From Candidatus Babeliales bacterium (lineage in GTDB: Bacteria; Babelota; Babeliae; Babelales; JANWKD01), in assembly GCA_963722075.1 (NCBI GenBank), contig CAVRJM010000001.1, positions 981,898 through 1,045,897 on the forward strand: a DNA stretch of 64,000 nt, given 5' to 3'. A program made the position numbers and the translations under genes. Position 1 is the stretch's first letter. Each line of letters opens with the position of its first letter. This document shows positions 2,714 through 64,000 of this stretch, one piece after another. The notes below the pieces were generated by a model that was given only the letters and a program-made list of their open reading frames with translations, searched no databases and was not told the origin of the DNA.

Positions 2714-4012
2714 ATGCAGATAAACAATAAATCGGCTATGCCGATTCAGCAAGTATATTGGTATATCAATAAGCCATTAAATCCGCCACTTAAAGAAAAT
2801 ATCACCGTTGATGTTCTTATTATTGGCGGTGGCATGGCCGGATTAAGTGCCGCCCAAGCATTTCATGAAAAAGGGTTGCGCGTTGCGCTCATAGAAAAAA
2901 ATTTTTGTGGCGCTGGAGCAAGCGGCAAAAGTTCAGGATTTATTACTCCCGATTCAGAATTTGCACTCCATAATTTAATTGATTTTTATGGAAATGAGGT
3001 TGGCAAACGCCTTTGGGAATTTTCTTCTAACGGCGTAGCACTCATAGAAAAGAATATACACCAACATAAGATTTCATGTGATTATCAAAAACAAAATACG
3101 CTGGTTATTGCTTCAAGCCATCATGCTTTTAACTCATCAATTAAAGCAGAATATCAGGCACGCAAACAATTTAATTACGCTGCAACTCTTTATGAAAAAG
3201 ATCGGGTGCCTTCAATTCTAGGATCATCAAGCTATTATGGCGCTATTGAATATCCTGACACGTTTGGCATACATGCATACGCCTATTGCCAAGAAATGAA
3301 AACGATTTTAACAAATGCGGGTGTTTTACTATACGAAGATACGCCGCTTACGAGCTTTACTACAAACGGTGCGCAAACGCCACATGCCACGATTACTGCT
3401 GATAAAGTAATTGTTTGTATTGATCGCTTTATTAATGATTATGCAAAATTGCTTTCTCAAGTATACCATGTACAAACGTTTTTAATGATGAGTGAACCCG
3501 TATCAGATCAGGTAATTAATGCGTTATTTCCAGCACGCAAATTTATGGTATGGGATACCAATCTTATTTATAATTATTTTCGCTGCACCGGGGATAATCG
3601 ATTAATGCTGGGGGGCGCACGGCTTTTATCAACGTATGCTCCACGTGAACATTATCATAATAAAAAAATAATTAAAAAATTATCTTCTTATTTCAAAAAA
3701 AGCTTCCCGCAAGTTGATATTCAATTTAATTATATATGGCCAGGCCTTATTGGGATAACCAAAGATATTATGCCTATTGCCGGACCGGATAAACAACATC
3801 CTCACATTTATTATATTAGCGGGGCCGCCGGGCTACCATGGGCTGCAGCCTTGGGCGTCTATAGTGCACAGCATATACTAGAAAACCGTACTGATTTAGA
3901 TGTCGTGTTTTCTCCTGAACGCCATTTTGCACTCGGCAGTTGCGCACAAAAATTATTAGGAACACCGCTTACATTTGCTTTATGTAATTTTATGCGCACC
4001 AGATCACTATAA
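2714..4012 (+). CDS. FAD-dependent oxidoreductase (DAO family)
   Basis: N-terminal Rossmann dinucleotide motif VLIIGGGMAGLSAAQAFHEKGLRVALIEK. Its length (432 aa) and C-terminal GAAGLPWAA block are typical of DAO-type flavoproteins. Confidence 0.75.
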   Translation: MQINNKSAMPIQQVYWYINKPLNPPLKENITVDVLIIGGGMAGLSAAQAFHEKGLRVALIEKNFCGAGASGKSSGFITPDSEFALHNLIDFYGNEVGKRLWEFSSNGVALIEKNIHQHKISCDYQKQNTLVIASSHHAFNSSIKAEYQARKQFNYAATLYEKDRVPSILGSSSYYGAIEYPDTFGIHAYAYCQEMKTILTNAGVLLYEDTPLTSFTTNGAQTPHATITADKVIVCIDRFINDYAKLLSQVYHVQTFLMMSEPVSDQVINALFPARKFMVWDTNLIYNYFRCTGDNRLMLGGARLLSTYAPREHYHNKKIIKKLSSYFKKSFPQVDIQFNYIWPGLIGITKDIMPIAGPDKQHPHIYYISGAAGLPWAAALGVYSAQHILENRTDLDVVFSPERHFALGSCAQKLLGTPLTFALCNFMRTRSL

Positions 4013-5718: not shown

Positions 5719-5905
5719 GCCGTCGTCACGAGCCGAAGGCGTGGTGATCAAGGCTATGCCGGACAAGGGCGTGGGGACTGTGTCCGCCGTAGCTTGTAGC
5801 GAAGGCTGGATCCAGGCTAAAATTTTCAAGGGAACCTGGATTGCTTCGACAAGCTCGCAACGACAAATTGTTGTTTTCGTCGTCATTACGAGCACAGACT
5901 GTGCA
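5719..5905. repeat. Composite GC-rich repeat island (several nested repeat units)
   Basis: Abrupt GC-rich patch containing cgtcgtcacgag...cgtggtgatc, gaaggctggatccagg, cctggattgcttcgacaagctcgcaacgac and cgtcattacgag. The overlapping track ORFs 5701..5895(-) and 5705..5944(+) are translations of these repeats. Confidence 0.75.
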
Positions 5906-6689: not shown

Positions 6690-6818
6690 CTGGATCCTTA
6701 CGCTATGCTCAGGATGACATTTAGAAAATTTATATTTATACTTGATCATTTTAATTTATTATAAGTGAGATTGTTATTCACTGGTCATCCTGAGGAACAA
6801 AGTGACGCAAGGATCCAG
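6690..6818. repeat. MITE-like element, GGATCC-type terminal inverted repeats
   Basis: ctggatccttacgctatgctcaggatgac (left) and gtcatcctgaggaacaaagtgacgcaaggatccag (right) are inverted copies flanking an AT-rich core of about 65 bp. Confidence 0.8.
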
Positions 6819-24716: not shown

Positions 24717-24826
24717 GTCATCCCGAGCTTGCGTGGGGATCCATTAATAAAATGAATAACCTATTAATGGATTGTTTCGTAAACCCTGTCCGCCGAAGCC
24801 CGGGGCGAAGGCTGGATCGCAATGAC
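24717..24826. repeat. GC-rich palindromic repeat units (both subtypes)
   Basis: gtcatcccgagcttgcgtggggatccattaataaaat, followed by atggattgtttcgtaaaccctgtccgccgaagcccggggcgaaggctggatcgcaatgac. Confidence 0.75.
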
Positions 24827-29012: not shown

Positions 29013-29064
29013 AAAGAGAAATAAGTAACGGTAGTTTATTTTAACACTTCAAAAAGGAGTATTT

Positions 29065-30687
29065 ATGAACAAAAAACTGCTCAAGGTCAGTTTACTTGCG
29101 CTGGGGGCTGTCTTTATGCCTGCCATTAATGGCGCAAGCGTAATAGATGACACCGGAGACAATGGCAAATATAATGGCGACGTAAGTGGCCATACCTTCT
29201 TATCAGTTCGTCCTCAATTTCAAAGCGGTATGCCAGAAAAAGAATCACTCTGGCGCAGAAGAGCAACCCCTGGCCCATGTGGTTTAGGTCGTGATTGCGG
29301 ATGGGGTGGCGCAGTTCAAGTAGTTGGTTTTGGTGGCCAATCCAATAAATCAGCACGTCTTGGCGAATTCTTCATGTATGGTGGTTCTAATCAACTCTTT
29401 GTAAGTTCAAATCAAGAACTATTCCCTCAAATAGATCCTGCTAACTTTGGTCTTTTTGCTGTTACTCCTGACACTCAATATAGCAGTACTATCCAATTTA
29501 ATCCACGTGAAAGCGATGGTGGTGTTGGTTTTGAATGGCGTCAATATTTAGGATGCGTTTCTGAATGCGCAGGCAACTGGTGGTTTGACATCTCATTCCC
29601 GGTAGTACAAATAAGCAACCGCGTTACCCTAACAGAATTAAATAGAACTGTTTCAGGGGCCGGTGATTTTGAAGCCGGAAGCGCTACCAGTATGATCCAA
29701 GCATTCCAAGGCACTGTCCCTTTTGATTTTCTTAATCCAGAAGGAAGTCATTCAGTTGGGCCTATGCTCTATGGCCTTATTCCAAGCCCTACCGGTTATT
29801 TAAGAAAATCGGGCGTTGCTGATCTTGAACTTAAAATTGGCTATGATGCATTATGCACTGAGTGCTGTTTCATTAATGGCTATGTAGGTGTGTTAGTACC
29901 AACGGGCAACAGACCTAAAGCAAAATACATTTTTGAACCAATTGTTGGTCATAACCATCACGTAGGATTCCTCTTTGGTAGTGCTATGTTCTATGATTGT
30001 TGGTCAGATTGCGATAGAAACTTAACCTGGGAAGTTGCATTTGATAGCAGATACTTATTCAGTGGGCATGAAACCCGTTCATTTGATTTAAAATATCGTC
30101 CATGGAGCCGTTACCTCTTAGTATACGCAAGCGCTGCTGATGCCGTTGCAGGTATAGTATCTCCTGGTATCAACTACTTCACGCAAGAATTTAAAGTTAC
30201 GCCACGCTTCTATACCACAATAGATACTTCCCTCGTATATACTTCAATGTGCGGACTTCAAGCGCAAGTTGGTTGGAACTTCTGGGCACGCGAATCAGAA
30301 AAACTTAAACTCAAAAATCCATTCCCTAATGGTATAGCAGTTGCAGCATTAAATTCAGGAAACGAACAACTGCCAAATGCAACCAACCTCTTAAGTAATA
30401 TTGGTAATAATAATGGTTGTGCGACGCCTGGTGTAATATGTACCGGCCAAGTTTCTCTTCCAACCGTTTATGGTATATCAACCACTCTTAACTCCTCAAA
30501 CATTGATTTTGCATCCGCAACAAACCCTGCAGTTATTTCTAATATAATTTATGGTACGGTTGGCTATGACTTTGATATTTGCTGTTATCCTACGTTTGCT
30601 GCTGTTGGTGGTTCATATGAATTCCCAGCAGTTAATACAGCGCTTACTCGTTGGAAAGTTTGGGGTAAGGTAGGTATTTCATTCTAA
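29065..30687 (+). CDS. Outer-membrane beta-barrel protein (porin/MOMP-like), family copy 1
   Basis: Signal peptide and strong SD AAAGGAG. Alternating beta-strand pattern with a terminal aromatic residue (WKVWGKVGISF). Paralogous to 59485..60996 and to the fragment at 32262..32558. Confidence 0.7.
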   Translation: MNKKLLKVSLLALGAVFMPAINGASVIDDTGDNGKYNGDVSGHTFLSVRPQFQSGMPEKESLWRRRATPGPCGLGRDCGWGGAVQVVGFGGQSNKSARLGEFFMYGGSNQLFVSSNQELFPQIDPANFGLFAVTPDTQYSSTIQFNPRESDGGVGFEWRQYLGCVSECAGNWWFDISFPVVQISNRVTLTELNRTVSGAGDFEAGSATSMIQAFQGTVPFDFLNPEGSHSVGPMLYGLIPSPTGYLRKSGVADLELKIGYDALCTECCFINGYVGVLVPTGNRPKAKYIFEPIVGHNHHVGFLFGSAMFYDCWSDCDRNLTWEVAFDSRYLFSGHETRSFDLKYRPWSRYLLVYASAADAVAGIVSPGINYFTQEFKVTPRFYTTIDTSLVYTSMCGLQAQVGWNFWARESEKLKLKNPFPNGIAVAALNSGNEQLPNATNLLSNIGNNNGCATPGVICTGQVSLPTVYGISTTLNSSNIDFASATNPAVISNIIYGTVGYDFDICCYPTFAAVGGSYEFPAVNTALTRWKVWGKVGISF

Positions 30688-30707
30688 TATAAAAAGGAAT
30701 ATAAATT

Positions 30708-31197: not shown

Positions 31198-31279
31198 TCA
31201 ATAAATTATTGAAGCAAATATTCATCTATGTTTAAAATAATACGGTAACTTATTCAACACCTTCAAAAAGGAGTATGTA

Positions 31280-32259
31280 TAGCACTAATCACTTGTTAAC
31301 CCCCAAAAGTAGTAATAGCAGCTGCATAAAGATCATGATTTGAAAGCTGAAGATTTTTTTAATTTTATGTTTGATAGCTTGCCAGTGATGTTCGATAGGA
31401 TTTAAATCAGGAGAATAAGGTGGCAAATAAAGCAATTTGCAATGAGCTTGCTGAAGTATTTTTGCAATAGAACCACCTTTGTGAAATGCAGCATTATCAA
31501 GGACTAAAACTTGATTAGGGCGAAGATTTGAAAGAATACCTTGCTTAAAAATAAGTTTCAAAAATATCCCGATTACAGGGACCTTCAAAAACAAATGGAG
31601 CAATAAAGCAATTTTGGCTTAATGATCCTATTATATTAAGACGATTTGATCGTACAGCATTCTTCATAGCAAAAAGCCGTTCACCTTCTGGGGCCCAGCC
31701 ATAATCATAAGTTTCATTATCATCTATTCCTGCTTCATCAAGATAAATAATATCTTCAATTTTATATTGTGCTATTTCTTGTTTAAAGTCTTGTCTTTTT
31801 TCTTCATCACGTTCTTTATATCCATAAGTTTTTTTTTACGAGTAAAATTTATTTTTTTCAGGGATCTTCCTATAGAACTTGTAGATCCTGATCCCCATAA
31901 CTCTGCCATTTCTCCTGTTGTTTTATCTGAGTAAGTCTGTGCAAAAATTTTGAATTCTTCCCAATCACTAACAATAGGTTTTGATCCGCCTTTAAAAATT
32001 ATTGGAGGTTGTTTTACTGACCCTGTGCTTTTTCTTAACTTTCTCCATGTTGATAATGTTTTTCTATTTATGCCTAATACTTCCGCAATTTTCGTATAGG
32101 ACATCTTCCCTTCATCCACAAGTTCCATTGCTCTTTTACGTAAATCATCACTATAAATTAAGGGCATTTTCTTTCCTTTTTACTTCATTTACTTAATGCT
32201 CTTAATTTGCCTTATTTTTTATCATTTTCAAGTTGATACCTTGCAAACGTTTAATGCTA
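31280..32259 (-). mobile_element. IS630/Tc1-mariner-family insertion sequence (~980 bp) with TA target duplication
   Basis: Ends tagcactaa... and ...ttaatgcta are inverted (one mismatch in the outer ~9-11 bp), each flanked by TA (31278-79 and 32260-61). It encodes an HTH plus DDE transposase. Confidence 0.75.
31289..32167 (-). pseudogene. IS630-family transposase, split into three frame segments
   Basis: N-terminal HTH (SYTKIAEVLGINRKTLSTWRK). Middle segment in the -1 frame (YLDEAGIDDNETYDYGWAPEGER). C-terminal DNAAFHK...PPYSPDLNPIEHHW. The first shift is at an A9 run (about 31832-31840) and could be programmed -1 slippage. The second shift is at a T-run near 31560-31570. Confidence 0.7.
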
Positions 32260-32261
32260 TA

Positions 32262-32558
32262 AGTAATATTGGTAATAATGCTGCATGTACTTCAGTTTCT
32301 CCTACCTCTCCTGCTGATTGTTCAAGCACTACACAAGCTACTTACCCTGTTGGTACAATTACTGCTGCTGATATTGATTTTGCTTCTGTAGCAAATCCTG
32401 CAGTTATTTCTAATATTATTTACGGTACTGTTGGCTATGACTTTGATGTTTGTAGCTATCCAATTTTTGCCGCGGTTGGTGGATCATATGAATTCCCTGA
32501 TATTAATACCGCACTTACTCGTTGGAAAGTATGGGGTAAAGTAGGAGTTTCATTCTGA
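32262..32558 (+). pseudogene. 3' remnant of an OMP paralogue (last ~98 codons only)
   Basis: SNIGNN...NPAVISNIIYGTVGYDFDVCSYPIFAAVGGSYEFPDINTALTRWKVWGKVGVSF aligns with the C-terminus of 29065..30687. The paralogue's SD and ATG survive at 31262-31277 on the other side of the IS. Confidence 0.8.
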
Positions 32559-32569
32559 CATCGTAAGAT

Positions 32570-32603
32570 GTCATCCTGAGGTCTTTAGGCCGTAAGGATC
32601 CAG
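32570..32603. repeat. GGATCC-type repeat unit
   Basis: gtcatcctgaggtctttaggccgtaaggatccag followed by taataaaataaaataat. Confidence 0.75.
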
Positions 32604-53027: not shown

Positions 53028-53267
53028 ATGAATAAAAAGCTTACAAAGCATGGAAATAGCTTAGCCTTGGTAATAGATAAGCCATTATTAAAGCTCCTTA
53101 AAATTAACGAAAAAACCTTATTGGAAATATCTATTAAGGATAATACGCTTATTATAAAACCAACTACTGTAAAAAAAGCGAAGAAAAAAGAAGCCTCTAT
53201 TGATGAAATTGCCGAACAAATCATGAATAAATATGATATTACTTTTAAAAAACTTTCTAAAACGTAA
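53028..53267 (+). CDS. AbrB/MazE/SpoVT-type antitoxin
   Basis: 79 aa. KHGNSLALVIDKPLLKLLKI is a swapped-hairpin (looped-hinge helix) motif. Its stop overlaps the doc start by 1 nt. Confidence 0.75.
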   Translation: MNKKLTKHGNSLALVIDKPLLKLLKINEKTLLEISIKDNTLIIKPTTVKKAKKKEASIDEIAEQIMNKYDITFKKLSKT

Positions 53268-53665
53268 TGGACATTTATTTTTTATCACTTCAAGAAGTCA
53301 TTTTTTTGCACAAAAAAATTATGGAACGTTATGGAAATGGCTCTATGCTTATCAGAGATTTATCCCTTTTAGAATCAGCGGTTGCCCAACCTCAAGCAAC
53401 CGCATTTGGCAATTATCTTCATAATGATTTATTTGAAATGGCATCTGCGTATGCTTTTCATATTATTAAAAATCATCCTTTTATCGATGGCAATAAACGA
53501 ACAGGATTACTTATTGCATTAACGTTTCTAATGCGCAATGGAGTAGAAATAACCACATCATCTAAAGATTTATATGATTTTGCTCTTGATATTGCATCTT
53601 CAAAAATAAACAAAGAAGAAATCGCTAGTTTCTTTAATAAACATTCAAAACTTATTGGTAATTAA
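53267..53665 (+). CDS. doc: Doc (death-on-curing) / Fic-family toxin
   Basis: The Fic/Doc core HIIKNHPFIDGNKRTG matches the Doc variant HxFxDGNKR. 132 aa. Confidence 0.85.
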   Translation: MDIYFLSLQEVIFLHKKIMERYGNGSMLIRDLSLLESAVAQPQATAFGNYLHNDLFEMASAYAFHIIKNHPFIDGNKRTGLLIALTFLMRNGVEITTSSKDLYDFALDIASSKINKEEIASFFNKHSKLIGN

Positions 53666-53764: not shown

Positions 53765-53792
53765 GTCATTGCGAGCTCGCGAAGCAATCCAT
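53765..53792. repeat. GCAATCC-type repeat unit
   Basis: gtcattgcgagctcgcgaagcaatccat followed by taataaataaaag. Confidence 0.75.
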
Positions 53793-53987
53793 TAATAAAT
53801 AAAAGTCCGAATACCTTACTTGCAAAATTAAAATTTTAATTTTATAAAATGGATCCTTCACAGTCGTTTATAATAGTATATACAACTGAATCTTCTGGAA
53901 ACTGTTTACTCAAAAAAGGCCTTTTTGCTAATATAACAATAGATAGAATCTTATCTTTTTTATAATTTTATTCAAAACGGGGGTATT

Positions 53988-54439: not shown

Positions 54440-54665
54440 ATTAAATAAGAAGTGGCCACTATAGTGCATGATTCTCATAGCTGTTTACTTTGCCATAGGC
54501 TGAAGAACGACGTCTGGATGCCAAGCCGGAATGTGCGTGGATAAGCGAAATGGCCTTTTGAATTGAAAATATTGGGCATGCAATATTTTCATGCCTGGCC
54601 GGTATTAGGCCAATAGAAAAAGGATTAGATTTTATTACTGGATTGCTTCGCAAGCTCGCAACGAC
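54440..54665. repeat. GC-rich island ending in a GCAATCCAG-type unit
   Basis: GC-rich relative to its flanks. Small hairpins (ggcatg..catgcc, tggcc..ggcca). Ends with ctggattgcttcgcaagctcgcaacgac. Track ORF 54459..54653(-) begins with RSNPV, the usual translation of the repeat. Confidence 0.55.
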
Positions 54666-54792
54666 AGGTTTTTAATTAATTAATGGATTCTATCAGATGA
54701 TGTTCAAAACAACCATTTCTCATTAAATTCTTCTTTAATATCCATTTCGAACCTGTAATGGCATAAAAAATTAAAAGATATTTTAAAAACTA

Positions 54793-54822
54793 TTGAATTT
54801 AACATGTCTTTTCTATTAGAAT
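54793..54822 (+). promoter_or_regulatory. Candidate sigma70-type promoter of leader copy 1
   Basis: TTGAAT, 18 nt, then TAGAAT. Conserved in copy 2. Confidence 0.55.
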
Positions 54823-54831
54823 AAGAATTAG

Positions 54832-54925
54832 AAGTCGGGAGAGGTAGTTTGAAGCTTGTCTCAGTAATAACGAAAGAAATTGTTGAGAATATAGGATTAA
54901 ACCTATGAATCCCCGACTTTTTTAA
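54832..54925 (+). ncRNA. Structured RNA leader, copy 1 (unclassified cis-regulatory RNA or sRNA candidate)
   Basis: Closing stem aagtcggg / cccgactt, followed by a U-run. Inner 10-bp hairpin 54859-54868 / 54879-54888 with loop aacgaaagaa. Conserved blocks GGUAGUUUGAAGCUUG and AGGAUUAAA. Covaries with copy 2. Confidence 0.55.
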
Positions 54926-54958
54926 TTAAAAAACCCTTAAAAAATAGGTTTTTTTATA

Positions 54959-55399
54959 ATGAAAAAAAGTTCATTATTTCTTTTTATCATATTATTACCA
55001 ACATTTCTTTGTGCAAAACGAATGGTCTATTTCAAAAATGATACCAATTTTCCTGCAGATAACTTTTTATTTATCTTTGTATGGCACAGTCCAGATGCCA
55101 CGCAAGAAGAGCGTGATAAAGCGCATCATCAATTAGGCTTTATGCATTATTTTAAAGGATTTCCCAATCATATAGACCTTGATTCCCTAGTAGATACACA
55201 TACCAATAAACCAGTACAACCAGGTTATATTGTAGATCTTTTTATTAAAACCACCATTCCTTCAGGGTTAGAAACCAGAACATATCCTCCTCATAGAAAG
55301 TTTTATAAAGGAGAATTACGGCGTATTAAGCCACTAACCTATTCAGTAAAAGCATCTGATCTATATTTTGAGATTCAATTTGAACCTGTAATACCATAG
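54959..55399 (+). CDS. Small secreted protein, paralogue pair member 1
   Basis: 146 aa with a signal peptide. Shares RMVYFKNDTNF and IDLDSLVD..KPVQPG with 55591..56118. Confidence 0.6.
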   Translation: MKKSSLFLFIILLPTFLCAKRMVYFKNDTNFPADNFLFIFVWHSPDATQEERDKAHHQLGFMHYFKGFPNHIDLDSLVDTHTNKPVQPGYIVDLFIKTTIPSGLETRTYPPHRKFYKGELRRIKPLTYSVKASDLYFEIQFEPVIP

Positions 55400-55425
55400 C
55401 AATTTAAAAATATTATTAAAAACCA

Positions 55426-55456
55426 TTGAATTTAGCACTATCTTTTCTATTAGAAT
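55426..55456 (+). promoter_or_regulatory. Candidate sigma70-type promoter of leader copy 2
   Basis: TTGAAT, 19 nt, then TAGAAT. Confidence 0.5.
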
Positions 55457-55465
55457 TATAAGTAG

Positions 55466-55560
55466 AAGTCGGAAGAGGTAGTTTGAAGCTTGCCTAAATA
55501 CAGACGAAAGAATTTATTTAGGACAGAGGATTAAAAGCCTGTGAATCTCCGACTTTATAT
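55466..55560 (+). ncRNA. Structured RNA leader, copy 2
   Basis: Closing stem aagtcgga / tccgactt. Inner hairpin cctaaata / tatttagg (55493-55500 / 55515-55522) around the same ACGAAAGAA loop core. Confidence 0.55.
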
Positions 55561-55590
55561 TTTTGTATTAATATATAAAAAGGGTGTGTT

Positions 55591-56118
55591 ATGAAAAATA
55601 AAATAGGATTATTGGTTTTGCTGTTTATTTCATTGCCAGCAGCTGGTACTCGTATTGTTAAATTTCAAAATAACACTAATTATACTGATAAAATATTTTC
55701 TTATTTTGCATTTTCATTTTACAAGCCGGAGAATATAAAACCCGGTACTACTATAAATCCAGATTACTCTGCAATAGAATATGGTTTTGTAAAGCGGGTT
55801 GATTTAGATAATCTAAAAGATGATAAAACCAAGAAAGCAATTCCAGCAGGTCTTTCTGCCGATGTAAGGGTAGTAACGACACAACCTTCTAACCTTCCTC
55901 CAGAAGGTATTCCCCCCCAACCAATACCTTTAACCGGATCTCAAACTAATTTGGCACCTGGTACTTATACTATATATGAATCAAGCGATGCCATCCACTT
56001 TAGGCTGATTACTCCAACAGCACCTGCAGCTAGCACGCTCACCATCAGCAGCAAAATAAGTTATTTTGATTCTAATAACGATATAATTTCTTTATCAAGT
56101 GCTATTTTTTCTTCATAA
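55591..56118 (+). CDS. Small secreted protein, paralogue pair member 2
   Basis: 175 aa with a signal peptide. RIVKFQNNTNY and VDLDNLKD..KAIPAG. Confidence 0.6.
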   Translation: MKNKIGLLVLLFISLPAAGTRIVKFQNNTNYTDKIFSYFAFSFYKPENIKPGTTINPDYSAIEYGFVKRVDLDNLKDDKTKKAIPAGLSADVRVVTTQPSNLPPEGIPPQPIPLTGSQTNLAPGTYTIYESSDAIHFRLITPTAPAASTLTISSKISYFDSNNDIISLSSAIFSS

Positions 56119-56924
56119 TTATTTTTTATATCTATTTGCAATTGTGATTGAGCCGCTTGAAGTGCCGTATGAATATTTTGATCATATGCGTCGAATGGAA
56201 CATTTAGATTAGGATCAGCACCATTCATTAGTAGAAAATCTACTAATGATATATTCCTTATTTCAATGGCATAAAATAATAAGCTGCCATATCCACGATC
56301 ATTTGGACTCTTAAAAAGAGTATTAGGATTAAGTCCTTTTTGAACTGCTTTTTTAATAAAGTTAATAATATTTGTATTTTCAGAAGTAAAACCAACAAGT
56401 CTCATTCGAATAAAATATGGCTCATTTGAATTTTTTATGGGTGGCAAAGATGGATTAGCGCCATGATCTAATAGTTCAATTGCTATATCATATTGTGCGG
56501 TCTTATATCGTGATCCCTTTAGCGCTATATATAAAAGAGTTTCATCAGCTACATACGTATTAGGATTTAATCCATGGTCAAGAAGAGCTTTTGCCAATGA
56601 AAAATTGTTACCAAAAATCTCTATTAAAAGATGCTCATGTTGCATAAAAAAGGCGATTCCATTTGCATCTTCAAAAATGGCCAATCCAAGTTCAAAAGCA
56701 TTTTCTTTCATTATGTTCATTAAAATTGCGATGATAATTTCATCATTAAATACTTTTAAAGATATCCCATCATCTAATAGGCTTATTGCTGCTTCTTGCC
56801 ATTTTGTTACATTTTCTTTATTCAAAAAAATCATTAATATTCCTCTCCCTCTGAGCGGATGGTAATAATAAATGCGTGTTACCATTATATTTAAGTGATT
56901 AATAAATTCGTTTAATTTGAACAA
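56061..56924 (-). CDS. Ankyrin-repeat protein
   Basis: ANK-like units ending LLDHGLNPN, LLDHGANPS, VQKGLNPN and LLMNGADPN. The true start may be an internal Met. Confidence 0.7.
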   Translation of the reverse strand: MFKLNEFINHLNIMVTRIYYYHPLRGRGILMIFLNKENVTKWQEAAISLLDDGISLKVFNDEIIIAILMNIMKENAFELGLAIFEDANGIAFFMQHEHLLIEIFGNNFSLAKALLDHGLNPNTYVADETLLYIALKGSRYKTAQYDIAIELLDHGANPSLPPIKNSNEPYFIRMRLVGFTSENTNIINFIKKAVQKGLNPNTLFKSPNDRGYGSLLFYAIEIRNISLVDFLLMNGADPNLNVPFDAYDQNIHTALQAAQSQLQIDIKNNYEEKIALDKEIISLLESK

Positions 56925-60996: not shown

Positions 60997-61130
60997 TCTT
61001 GTGTTTCCTTTTTTGGTATCTTTCATAGGATAGGATAGCTACGTAAGAAAAACAAGGTACCTTTTTTTAATAAAATCTTGCAAATGATTTTCTTATTATT
61101 TTAGTATTGGGTTCATGAAATAGATAAATC

Positions 61131-61188
61131 GGAATGACAATTTGCTACCTATCGTCATCCCGAGGAACAAAGTGACGTGGGGATCTAG
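61131..61188. repeat. GGATCC-type repeat inserted in the 5' region of 61212..62801
   Basis: ggaatgac...cgtcatcccgaggaacaaagtgacgtggggatctag. Absent from the otherwise homologous upstream region of the paralogue at 63020. Confidence 0.75.
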
Positions 61189-61211
61189 TCCTTATAAAAC
61201 GGAGAAAAAAT

Positions 61212-62801
61212 ATGTTGTTATATCTTTTAACACTTTTCTTATTTCTATCCCATTCTTGTTTTGCCGATATGCAAAGGGAATTAACTAACCTTAAAGGAAA
61301 ATTAAACAATTTGTTATATGGTTTGCAGCCGTCTGCACCACTACCCACTCGCCTACCAACACCTACCTCGACATACCAACCACAACAACAAGTGCCAATC
61401 AGCGCTCGTATGGTAACGCCAACACCAATACAAGATCGCATATTAAATATTCAAAGGCGCCAACAGCAACCAATAAACTTTGGTGATATTTCTGATGAAA
61501 TATTACGCCGTGAAATGATTCTTATTGGATCGTCATGGAACTCTTCTGCAGCTCATTTACCCGCTTTTGAAAATGCCGTACAAGCTTTTTTAACATTTAT
61601 TCAATCAGATCAAGCAAAAAATATTCGCGCTGAGCCCCAACAATTTGTAGAAGTGGTAAATCAATTTCACAAGCTTTTTAACCCAACAGATGTTCAATAC
61701 CTCAAAGTACATCTTCAAACGATAACTGATTATGCTAAAAACCATACTGTAAGTAATCATGACAAGCAAATTGTATATAATTTTCTAACACTTATTTCAA
61801 ACATTTTGAATATTATTGCTGAAGAAGTTCTTTCTTATCGTGAAGACATTCTTATTCCTGAAGACCGAACAAAAAATATTTTTTGGGATTCAACACCATC
61901 AAATATATTTCAATTACCTGGTCATCAAGGTTACCCTCATGTACAAGGTTGGTGGTCAGAATTCATTGGAAAACCCTTAAGAGAACAAGCGCTTCATTAT
62001 AAACAAGGAGTACGCTATCCCGATGCCTTAAATATGGGTTATCTTGATCGCGCAATTCATGCGTTTATTCCAAAACCCGCACCACAACCAACCGTTACTC
62101 AGCCAACTCCACAACCTACGCCAACAACCATGCAACCAGTGCCTCAACAAGCCAGTTCACAACCAACAAGAACCTATCCTCTACGAGAGTTAGCTGAAAA
62201 ATATAAATACATTGACGAAGAATTAGTAGATATTAGTAACGATGACGTACAAATAGTTGCCGCCTCATATTTATATCCTTTTAGTCACAATATCATACAG
62301 CATCTTTCTCTTTTTGAACGGGCATTAGATAACTTTAGAAATTACTTAGTAACTCAACAAGGCGAAACAATTAACGAACCCGAGAGATTTGTTGAATTAG
62401 TAAGAGAGTTTAGAGATTTTTTTGGTACTGATAAAATAGAAGTGGTAAAACAAGCGCTGGATCATTTGATAAAAATGCCGTCTAGGTCTTTTTCCCCTGA
62501 AGACAAAGCAATTCTTCATAATTATTTGGATGATCTTTCTTACTTATTAAATCAAGTTTATGAAATTGCTAGTCAATTTGAACAAGATAATCAACGGCTA
62601 TTACATTCAGTTAAATGGGAAGGCGACGAATTTTCTGTTATGGCCCCAGGCGCACGTGATGCATATTTTTGGTTCAATAGCGGTATTGCTCAGCCATTAT
62701 ATGATGATGCAAAAGCGCGAGAAAATCCACGTGCTTCGCCAGCAGGCACCCCACTAAACAGCTACTATCTTTTTGATGCAATTAGACACTTTAAACAATA
62801 A
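61212..62801 (+). CDS. Secreted modular protein with P/Q-rich linkers (two ~200-aa internal repeats)
   Basis: Signal peptide, LxxLKxxLxxLxxxLxP motif and PQPT-type linkers. Two homologous modules (AFENAVQAFLTF..EPQQFVEVVNQFHKLF and LFERALDNFRNY..EPERFVELVREFRDFF). Confidence 0.7.
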   Translation: MLLYLLTLFLFLSHSCFADMQRELTNLKGKLNNLLYGLQPSAPLPTRLPTPTSTYQPQQQVPISARMVTPTPIQDRILNIQRRQQQPINFGDISDEILRREMILIGSSWNSSAAHLPAFENAVQAFLTFIQSDQAKNIRAEPQQFVEVVNQFHKLFNPTDVQYLKVHLQTITDYAKNHTVSNHDKQIVYNFLTLISNILNIIAEEVLSYREDILIPEDRTKNIFWDSTPSNIFQLPGHQGYPHVQGWWSEFIGKPLREQALHYKQGVRYPDALNMGYLDRAIHAFIPKPAPQPTVTQPTPQPTPTTMQPVPQQASSQPTRTYPLRELAEKYKYIDEELVDISNDDVQIVAASYLYPFSHNIIQHLSLFERALDNFRNYLVTQQGETINEPERFVELVREFRDFFGTDKIEVVKQALDHLIKMPSRSFSPEDKAILHNYLDDLSYLLNQVYEIASQFEQDNQRLLHSVKWEGDEFSVMAPGARDAYFWFNSGIAQPLYDDAKARENPRASPAGTPLNSYYLFDAIRHFKQ

Positions 62802-62815
62802 TCGTATTATTTTAA

Positions 62816-62850
62816 AAAGGGATGCAGTAGGCATCCCTTTTATTTTTTTA
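62816..62850 (+). terminator. Rho-independent terminator
   Basis: aaagggatgc / gcatcccttt stem with loop agtag, followed by a T-rich tail. Confidence 0.8.
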
Positions 62851-63019
62851 TTACTTCTTCTACGCTCTTATTTTCATAAATAATACCATGCATCGCTTGC
62901 GTTAATGTGCTTCTTGTAAACAAGGTACCTTTTTTTAATAAAATCTTGCAAACGCTTTCCTTATTATTATAAAAAATAAAATGATTGATTCCAATACTCT
63001 AATCCGTACGGAGAAAAAA

Positions 63020-64000
63020 ATGGCCATTTATTTTTTATTAATTTTCTTATTTCTATCCCATTCTTGTTTTGCCGATATACAAGGGGAATTAACTAATCTA
63101 AAAGGAAAATTAAACGATCTATTATATGGATTGCAGCCATCAGCACCTTCTTACCAACCATCATACCAGCCGCCATCATATAAACAACCACAACCAACGC
63201 CAACCGGTCGTCTAATGACGCCGACACCATTAAAAGATAGCATCATTGATATGTATACTGTGGTAAAAAAGACCCCAATCAGCAGGCTTAATCATATTCC
63301 AAAAATATACCCATTAATGACGAAAATATATTTAGAATGGCTTGCATTATTTGATGGCTTAGACGCTTTTGATTCTGCCTTAAATGATTTCTCAAACTTT
63401 ATAAAATCAGGCAAATTAAAAGGAACGATTACTGAACCACAAAAATTTGTTACGTTAGCTGATGCTTTAGATGCTTTTTTTAATGAAGAAAGAATTAAAA
63501 AATTAAAAAAAAGTATCATTGATTTAATAAAGACTTACCAAGCGAACCCTTCGCAAGTTGATTCAGAAAGCAAAAATCTCATCATTAGTTTTTTTAAACG
63601 AATTTCAACAATATATAATACGCTTGCCGAAAAAACATCAGAAATCTATGACGATTTGGCTAAGTTTTCAAAAACATTACCAGTAGATATCATTTGGACG
63701 GGAGAAGAAATAGCACAAGGCAAAACACGTACTATGCAACATTGGTTTAATGGATATATTAATATGCCTATGACTTATAAAGCAATGGCATATAATCCAT
63801 CAAAAGGAATTACTGAATCGCATTATTTAAATGCAGGATATATTCGTAATGCAATTCAAGCATTCGAAGGACATACGGTAACTTTGCCCGGCATACAACA
63901 GCCAGCTCCTCAACCAACCGCTCAACCACAACCAACTCCGCAACCCATGCCCTCACCAGTGCAACCTGTTACTCAACCAGCGCCGCAACCTACGCCAACG
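63020..64000 (+). CDS. Secreted modular protein, paralogue of 61212..62801 (3' end outside window)
   Basis: By my reading this frame is open from ATG 63020 to the window end (327 codons), and it is not in the ORF track. The first ~45 codons are nearly identical to 61212. Same module (LDAFDSALNDFSNF..EPQKFVTLADALDAFF) and PQPT linker. Confidence 0.75.
   Translation, partial: MAIYFLLIFLFLSHSCFADIQGELTNLKGKLNDLLYGLQPSAPSYQPSYQPPSYKQPQPTPTGRLMTPTPLKDSIIDMYTVVKKTPISRLNHIPKIYPLMTKIYLEWLALFDGLDAFDSALNDFSNFIKSGKLKGTITEPQKFVTLADALDAFFNEERIKKLKKSIIDLIKTYQANPSQVDSESKNLIISFFKRISTIYNTLAEKTSEIYDDLAKFSKTLPVDIIWTGEEIAQGKTRTMQHWFNGYINMPMTYKAMAYNPSKGITESHYLNAGYIRNAIQAFEGHTVTLPGIQQPAPQPTAQPQPTPQPMPSPVQPVTQPAPQPTPT

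Follow-up and report, generated by a model that had tools for sequence, protein, structure and literature searches.

Two genes for highly diverged secreted paralogs in a 64,000-nucleotide (nt) stretch of contig CAVRJM010000001.1 (positions 981,898 to 1,045,897 of the forward strand; the whole stretch is called the window, and coordinates count from its first letter unless a related locus is named) are each preceded by a structured RNA element of about 95 nt. The element lies between a promoter-like site and the start codon, is better conserved than the coding sequences that flank it, covaries in its two main helices P1 and P3, folds in a strand-specific manner and is absent from Rfam. We tentatively interpret it as a lineage-restricted, cis-acting structured 5' leader RNA in which the closing helix P1 and the U-run behind it would form an embedded terminator. 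An earlier proposal, made from the letters of the window (the original prediction), had placed here a candidate for a new cis-regulatory RNA of attenuator-like design, and it survived those of its suggested checks that were run.

The segment 54767-56118 is a tandem duplication, each unit of which consists of a promoter-like site, the ~95-nt element, a spacer of ~35-45 nt and an open reading frame (ORF) with a signal peptide, in this order and all on the plus strand. Gene 1 (54959-55399) encodes a protein of 146 amino acids (aa) that belongs to a small secreted beta-sandwich family, and gene 2 (55591-56118) its 175-aa paralog. With 30% identity over 135 aa (E=6e-13) the two proteins are true, highly diverged paralogs; the original prediction was right about the strong divergence, but the proteins share somewhat more than the few short blocks it had allowed them. 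Upstream of both genes, ~190 nt can be aligned at a mean column identity of 85%, and the RNA cores are 82% identical, which bears out the claim that the non-coding part is better conserved than the coding part. The two promoter-like sites are likewise present as described: TTGAAT-N18-TAGAAT at 54793-54822 (site 1) and TTGAAT-N19-TAGAAT at 55426-55456 (site 2, read directly and beginning 27 nt past the gene 1 stop codon). Matches to the promoter consensus are not enriched in the window (91 found, 76.6 ± 9.2 in shuffled sequence; G+C content of the window 34.8%), and the case for real promoters therefore rests on conservation: both hexamers and an upstream AAAAC are kept in five homologous upstream regions from four organisms, namely those of copy 1, copy 2 and the related loci L002, L005 and L006. 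From site 1, transcription is predicted to start at ~54829-54831, at the foot of P1.

The leader RNA occupies 54830-54923 in copy 1 (114.9 bits with covariance model R1; minimum free energy -28.7 kcal/mol, z = -4.09) and 55464-55556 in copy 2 (114.8 bits with R1 and 115.9 bits with model R2; z = -3.59). Searches of the window with both models and with filters off returned these two copies at ~115 bits and no other copy, the next best site in the 64 kb scoring 15-16 bits. The 18-mer GAGGTAGTTTGAAGCTTG occurs exactly twice in the window, against 0.08 occurrences expected even when up to three mismatches are allowed. From 5' to 3', the parts of the two copies are the 5' strand of P1 (54831-54842 and 55465-55476), an invariant core (54840-54858 and 55474-55492), the hairpin P3 (54859-54888 and 55493-55522) with CGAAAG at its apex (54871-54876 and 55505-55510), and the 3' strand of P1 (54910-54920 and 55546-55556). 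In copy 1, a 3' core spans 54889-54909 and the U-run 54918-54923; in copy 2, P1 is followed by UUUAUAUUUUU.

A third copy was found in a different organism. A profile of the two ORFs was searched against 1.84 billion protein representatives, and a covariance model derived from both window copies was then run over the contigs of the matches. The scan recovered the element at L002 3279-3379 (88.5 bits, E=5e-20), again between a matching promoter and a gene of the family (P0008, whose true start codon is probably at 3403, 15 nt upstream of the called start); L001, from a sister sample, holds the 3' end of the L002 element. All three copies begin a few nt past the conserved -10 box and end in a U-rich run ahead of a family gene. 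The RNAs are 82%, 81% and 86% identical in pairwise comparisons, i.e. roughly equidistant, and the attached proteins 29-36%; the conserved protein ParA reaches only 77% identity between the two organisms, at the protein as well as the DNA level. Recent gene conversion, which the original prediction had listed as a way in which it could fail, was dropped as an explanation: the two window copies share only 82% identity, and copy 2 is nearer to the L002 copy (86%) than to copy 1 (82%).

All three copies fold as an independent domain. The counts given here rest on three sequences from two organisms, and the control shuffles ignore the relatedness between them. P1 comprises eleven pairs and one bulged A, and two of its pairs switch independently between G-C and A-U; one such change, in alignment columns 12 and 87, had been described for the window copies, and L002 adds a second. 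P3 has ten or eleven pairs, five or six of which are changed on both sides; here, too, the differing sequence with preserved pairing reported for the window copies is present, and L002 contributes a third P3 sequence in which pairing is kept. Taken over P1 and the GAAA-capped P3, 7-9 pairs change on both sides across the three copies without loss of pairing. In the alignment, 98% of the cells are paired (95-98% for P1 and P3), and the seven double-sided pair changes compare with 2.6 ± 1.2 in shuffled alignments, none out of 500 of which reached seven. Sliding the partners by 1-3 columns lowers the pairing to 30-52%. Stem columns of P3 are variable in 15 out of 20 cases and apical loop columns in 1 out of 10, and the 5' core AGAGGUAGUUUGAAGCUUG does not vary in any of its 19 columns (P ~0.006 for an invariant run of such length, by permutation); the 3' core is semi-conserved. 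The conserved loop core ACGAAAGAA noted originally is a C-G-closed GAAA tetraloop between A-rich internal loops, which makes the apex of P3 a symmetric A-rich internal loop, a C-G pair and the tetraloop. The blocks GGUAGUUUGAAGCUUG and AGGAUUAAA, in contrast, had been taken to be single-stranded and conserved, yet they are able to pair with each other, and the second reads AGAGGUAAAA in the third homolog. The covariation-supported fold in a 5' untranslated region (UTR) that is looked for in riboswitch-type elements is thus found here, on three sequences only.

The strand of the folded species can be told from two observations. On the plus strand the z-scores for folding amount to -4.1 and -3.6, versus -3.2 and -2.6 on the other strand, and in the rod fold (one of two folds described below) there are 12 G-U cells that on the other strand turn into A-C mismatches; the plus-strand RNA is therefore the species that folds. 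A DNA operator was dropped as an interpretation, since the G-U pairs and the compensatory changes point to RNA, and so was a hidden small protein gene, as neither window element contains an ORF of at least 20 aa. Hammerhead, K-turn and sarcin-ricin motifs showed no consistent register when looked for by eye.

Between P1 and P3, the three sequences are compatible with two folds, which leaves this middle part ambiguous. The rod fold is built from GUAG/CURU and UUUGA/UUAAA pairings and from a pairing of CUUG to the 3' side; in the junction fold, CURU has AYAG as its partner instead and a separate hairpin is formed. The two are ~1-2 kcal/mol apart in every copy. For the U-to-C and A-to-G changes seen in this part, the junction fold implies a single compensatory event and the rod fold a pair of wobble changes.

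No known RNA family accounts for the element, as the original prediction had expected. Rfam 15, whose 4227 models include every named riboswitch, ribozyme and leader, gave no match at gathering thresholds over the whole window. At E<=10 within 54700-55650, five chance-level matches were obtained, all below half of their threshold and none on the element core; three of them fall on the weak A/U hairpin that follows copy 1. Searches for further copies were negative as well. In ~160 kb of related loci from 8-9 organisms (L002/L001 and 16 other loci, L003-L011 and L040-L045), scanned with filters off, there was no copy beyond L002/L001, and the strict pattern GGTAGTTTGAAGC-N15-45-AGGATTAAA was not encountered in genome, metagenome or viral contigs. 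A relaxed, structure-agnostic pattern returned 15 loci, none of which the covariance model accepted (best 17.9 bits, with a broken P1); the 15-mer GAGGTAGTTTGAAGC gave 13 chance matches in viral contigs, none of which fits the model; BLAST against plasmids and phages produced no match to the element; and four further relatives reached with ParA as a synteny anchor lack it. The single family gene among these four, in L045, is truncated at the contig end, with its upstream region outside the sequence.

Family genes also occur without the element. In the relatives L005, L006-L011, L004 and L003 they have the same promoter followed by a short unstructured leader, so that the element amounts to a clean presence/absence difference of ~95 nt, located downstream of the -10 box and upstream of the ribosome-binding region. 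RNA-bearing genes are not each other's closest relatives in the family: the 146-aa protein shares 48% identity with P0004, which is encoded without the RNA, versus 29% with its RNA-bearing neighbour. Judged from these sequences, two histories fit, i.e. an ancestral element that was lost repeatedly or an old move between family promoters. Some element-less leaders hold core-like fragments (GGAAGAG in L006 9474-9495; AGTC..TGAAAAGCTCAAGCTT in L005 1390-1420, where the fragment forms a small hairpin), which may be deletion remnants or due to chance. Tightly packed two-gene operons of the family occur in three of the related organisms (L004 128-1062, L006 9524-10414 and L003 109-1165), with intergenic gaps of 0-54 nt, a single promoter and no RNA element.

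In the mechanism that we tentatively favour, transcription from the conserved sigma-70-type promoter would start at P1 or 1-3 nt before it. If the core is folded, or held in its fold by a ligand, a protein or a condition, P1 would close, and the closed P1 and the U-run would together act as an intrinsic terminator inside the sensing domain, such that transcription stops ahead of the gene. If P1 is kept from closing, RNA polymerase would read on into the gene for the small secreted beta-sandwich protein. The near-isoenergetic rod and junction folds enclosed by P1 are natural candidates for the two states, and both the switch between them and a trigger for it are what we infer from this arrangement. 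The layout fits: the 3' strand of P1 runs straight into six U in copy 1, seven U in L002 or UUUAUAUUUUU in copy 2, ~35-45 nt before the start codon, and the leaders of copy 2 and L002 contain no terminator-like hairpin other than P1 with its U-run. The U-run after the closing stem that had been predicted is thus strong in copy 1 and L002, though interrupted in copy 2. Copy 1 has in addition a weak second hairpin with a U-run (AAAAAACCC...GGUUUUUUU, 54928-54955, plus strand) directly before the gene 1 start codon; the U-run after P1 is a further possible partner for the A-run of this hairpin, whose form is not kept in copy 2 or L002. Whole-leader folds do not consistently sequester the ribosome-binding region of the main gene. 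Canonical intrinsic terminators are used in this genome, e.g. at 62815-62841.

Several observations weigh against an embedded terminator. Only three sequences from two organisms are available, and the covariation counts rest on very few events. The ~70 nt enclosed by P1 exceed an ordinary terminator loop by far, and a scan for the terminator consensus (loop of 3-8 nt) did not call P1. The U-run of copy 2 is interrupted, and three U residues can join an extended P1. A separate antiterminator is not evident, and the genes in question are of no known function, hence suggest no guessable ligand. In close relatives this promoter drives family genes with no element in between, and the element is therefore dispensable for the gene family. 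As an observation apart, a complementary A-run follows the U-run after P1 in all three copies (UUUUUUAAUUAAAAAA at 54917-54933, UUUAUAU...AUAUAAA at 55553-55579 and UUUUUUUGUUUAAAAAAA at L002 3370-3387), and the U-run could be sequestered in such an A/U hairpin after read-through; the genome is very AT-rich.

A ribosome might take the place of the ligand. In ribosome-dependent leader-peptide attenuation, a rival to be taken seriously although we consider it unlikely as the explanation in its own right, the conserved 3' block would act as a Shine-Dalgarno (SD)-like block for a tiny upstream ORF (uORF), and the translating ribosome would hold P1 open and permit read-through; with the block sequestered in the rod fold no ribosome would bind, P1 would close and transcription would stop. 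In copy 2, ribosomes would be handed straight to the main AUG via an overlapping AUGA. The speculative uORF 1 (54905-54925, plus strand; AUG AAU CCC CGA CUU UUU UAA, MNPRLF followed by stop) has AGGA 8 nt upstream, and the equally speculative uORF 2 (55541-55594, plus strand) has a GUG start, 17 codons and a UGA stop that overlaps the AUG of gene 2. An SD-like block indeed stands 8-10 nt before a start codon in each of the three copies (AGGA/AUG 54905, GAGGA/GUG 55541 and GAGG/GUG L002 3358), AAGGAG or AGGA at such spacing is used at many genes of this genome, and the SD of the copy 1 main ORF is poorer than that of uORF 1. In the rod fold the block takes part in pairing, and the junction fold leaves it in a loop; each candidate uORF extends across the 3' strand of P1 into and over the U-run. 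However, the uORFs have 6, 17 and 10 codons with unrelated tails (MNPRLF, MNLRLYIFVLIYKKGVL and MNLRFFCLKK), and neither a run of regulatory codons nor a conserved peptide is visible. The two codon changes between them are non-synonymous and coincide exactly with the compensatory changes in P1, which argues for selection on pairing and not on the peptide. The A/G difference in the start codon can just as well be put down to pairing (U-A/U-G in the rod, U-A/C-G in the junction), and an AUG or GUG 8-10 nt past a purine-rich block can occur by chance in three related sequences. Leader-peptide attenuation could also be a component of the embedded-terminator mechanism.

A leader that does not switch at all is distinctly unlikely. 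It would either shield the mRNA from 5'-end-dependent decay or set a fixed level of read-through, its core being bound by a housekeeping protein or an RNase. The fold starting at the predicted 5' end, its independence as a domain (the main gene's ribosome-binding site is not consistently occluded by it), and a gene context that suggests no metabolite would all agree with such a constitutive role, but a protective hairpin needs neither a 19-nt invariant core, nor an invariant tetraloop module, nor a U-run, and the relatives manage without the element. Very unlikely is an independent trans-acting small RNA gene of ~95 nt with its own promoter and P1/U-run terminator, from which the ORFs would be reached by read-through only. 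Promoter, compact fold and U-run do make up a complete transcription unit, and copy 1 has the second terminator-like hairpin before its ORF; on the other side, the element stands only directly upstream of one gene family, in three cases including the different genomic context of L002, no separate ORF promoter is evident between element and start codon, and the element-less genes of the family use the same promoter directly. Most improbable is a relic resembling a miniature inverted-repeat transposable element, with P1 as its terminal inverted repeat, that landed behind the ancestral family promoter and was copied with the gene: the exact presence/absence between -10 box and ribosome-binding region in homologous promoters, the inverted repeats at the element ends and the scatter of RNA-carrying genes among family members that are not nearest relatives would fit such an origin, but there is no target-site duplication or other direct repeat at the flanks (..TTAG/AAGTCGG...CCGACTT/TTTT.., ..GTAG/.../TATA.. 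and ..TTAG/.../TTTT..), no copy sits at an unrelated locus in the 64-kb window of the 1.42-Mb source genome or in ~160 kb of related DNA (many such copies would have refuted the original prediction by its own account), the 81-86% identity, invariant core and compensatory changes kept while the genes fell to ~30% show long purifying selection on the fold, and the G-U pairs make that fold strand-specific.

Described regulatory RNAs share single traits with the element. In a trp- or erm-type attenuator, as in the candidate arrangement here, a short uORF with an SD lies in a structured leader and translation competes with a terminator helix; unlike those systems, the element shows no regulatory codon runs, no conserved peptide and no alternative hairpins of the 1:2/2:3/3:4 kind. 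The cyclic di-GMP-I riboswitch (GEMM-I) is a P1-closed multi-helix aptamer with a GNRA-capped hairpin and often precedes genes for functionally uncharacterized proteins that are secreted or lie at the surface. The element resembles it in the P1-closed fold, the GNRA-capped hairpin and the secreted-protein context, and differs from it in that there is no Rfam match at E<=10, the GEMM core sequences are absent and the order of elements is another. In the riboswitch for hydroxymethylpyrimidine pyrophosphate (HMP-PP; thiS motif), the aptamer is built into the terminator stem and ligand binding prevents formation of the terminator (PMC6478431). On the embedded-terminator reading, sensing structure and terminator stem would be one helix with a U-run in the element as well, with no separate expression platform; the thiS motif, however, is a small hairpin at thiamin genes, whereas the element has ~95 nt, an enclosed hairpin and large cores, precedes genes for secreted proteins and has no sequence or Rfam match to that riboswitch. 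With orphan structured leader motifs known from comparative genomics (such as those in PMC8632094 and PMC11109978) it has in common a narrow distribution and a covariation-supported 5' UTR structure; it differs from them in being outside Rfam 15 and in having three representatives, far fewer than usual for naming a motif.

The downstream proteins offer no clue to a ligand by homology. Seven more members of the family were found in the profile search; its proteins have 136-175 aa, a signal peptide and motifs that include R-x-V-x-F-x-N-x-T-N and DLD. Neither Pfam nor NCBIfam contains a family for them. The AlphaFold 2 model of the gene 1 product is a confident beta-sandwich (predicted local distance difference test score, pLDDT, 85.8) for which Foldseek against the PDB found no significant fold match, only a weak likeness to cytolysin domain 4 and transthyretin. 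In the neighbourhood are genes for GroEL, a MazE/Doc pair, an ankyrin-repeat protein and ParA, whose relatives at ~60% identity carry the label Candidatus Dependentiae in their sources, which suggests a host-dependent bacterium of that group. Members of the family are found within 3 kb of partition genes (ParA and ribbon-helix-helix proteins) in four out of five organisms.

Other features of the surroundings were recorded alongside. A MazE-like antitoxin gene (53028-53267; PF04014, just under the cut-off) overlaps a Fic/Doc toxin gene (53267-53665; PF02661, E=2e-20) by one base, and the two, located 1.2 kb upstream of the leader locus, probably constitute a toxin-antitoxin pair. The 3' end of gene 2 overlaps that of a convergent ankyrin-repeat ORF (TTG start at 56924 as listed) by 58 nt (56061-56118), with no terminator evident between them. 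The genome, at 34.8% G+C in the window, also contains families of GC-rich, short palindromic intergenic repeats with the look of repetitive extragenic palindromes or terminators (2495-2518, 2617-2643, 6693-6718, 6784-6815, 24717-24741, 32570-32600 and 61154-61185; further sites at 5800, 19469, 24806, 26211 and 26410, at 53765-53799 and at 54640-54668). One type reads GTCATCCYGAG...GGATC and another ...GCGAAGGCTGGATCGCAA, and one repeat lies ~125 nt upstream of promoter 1. Two other tandem paralog pairs have conserved upstream DNA, namely 29028-30690 versus 31242-32561 and 61050-61339 versus 62918-63147 (54 nt at 93% in the latter pair); their coding starts are 84-85% identical, unlike those of the leader-bearing pair.

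The element is a candidate structured regulatory leader outside the described families, and its status as a riboswitch is not yet demonstrable. Its RNA sequence signature is clear and its architecture unusual; with three copies and a narrow distribution it is a good candidate only. A bolder and doubtful reading of the same sequences would make it a new riboswitch class with a terminator-embedded aptamer in a small Dependentiae-like intracellular clade, where a host-derived or signalling molecule would switch on secreted candidate effectors during infection. Direct ligand binding, if it occurs, would make the element a second sensing domain that doubles as its own terminator, beside the HMP-PP riboswitch. 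The close relatives provide natural controls, since the same promoter and gene family occur in them with and without the element. Candidatus Dependentiae are host-dependent bacteria with reduced genomes in which gene regulation is almost wholly obscure, and a leader that gates secreted proteins would show how such bacteria time the expression of candidate effectors.

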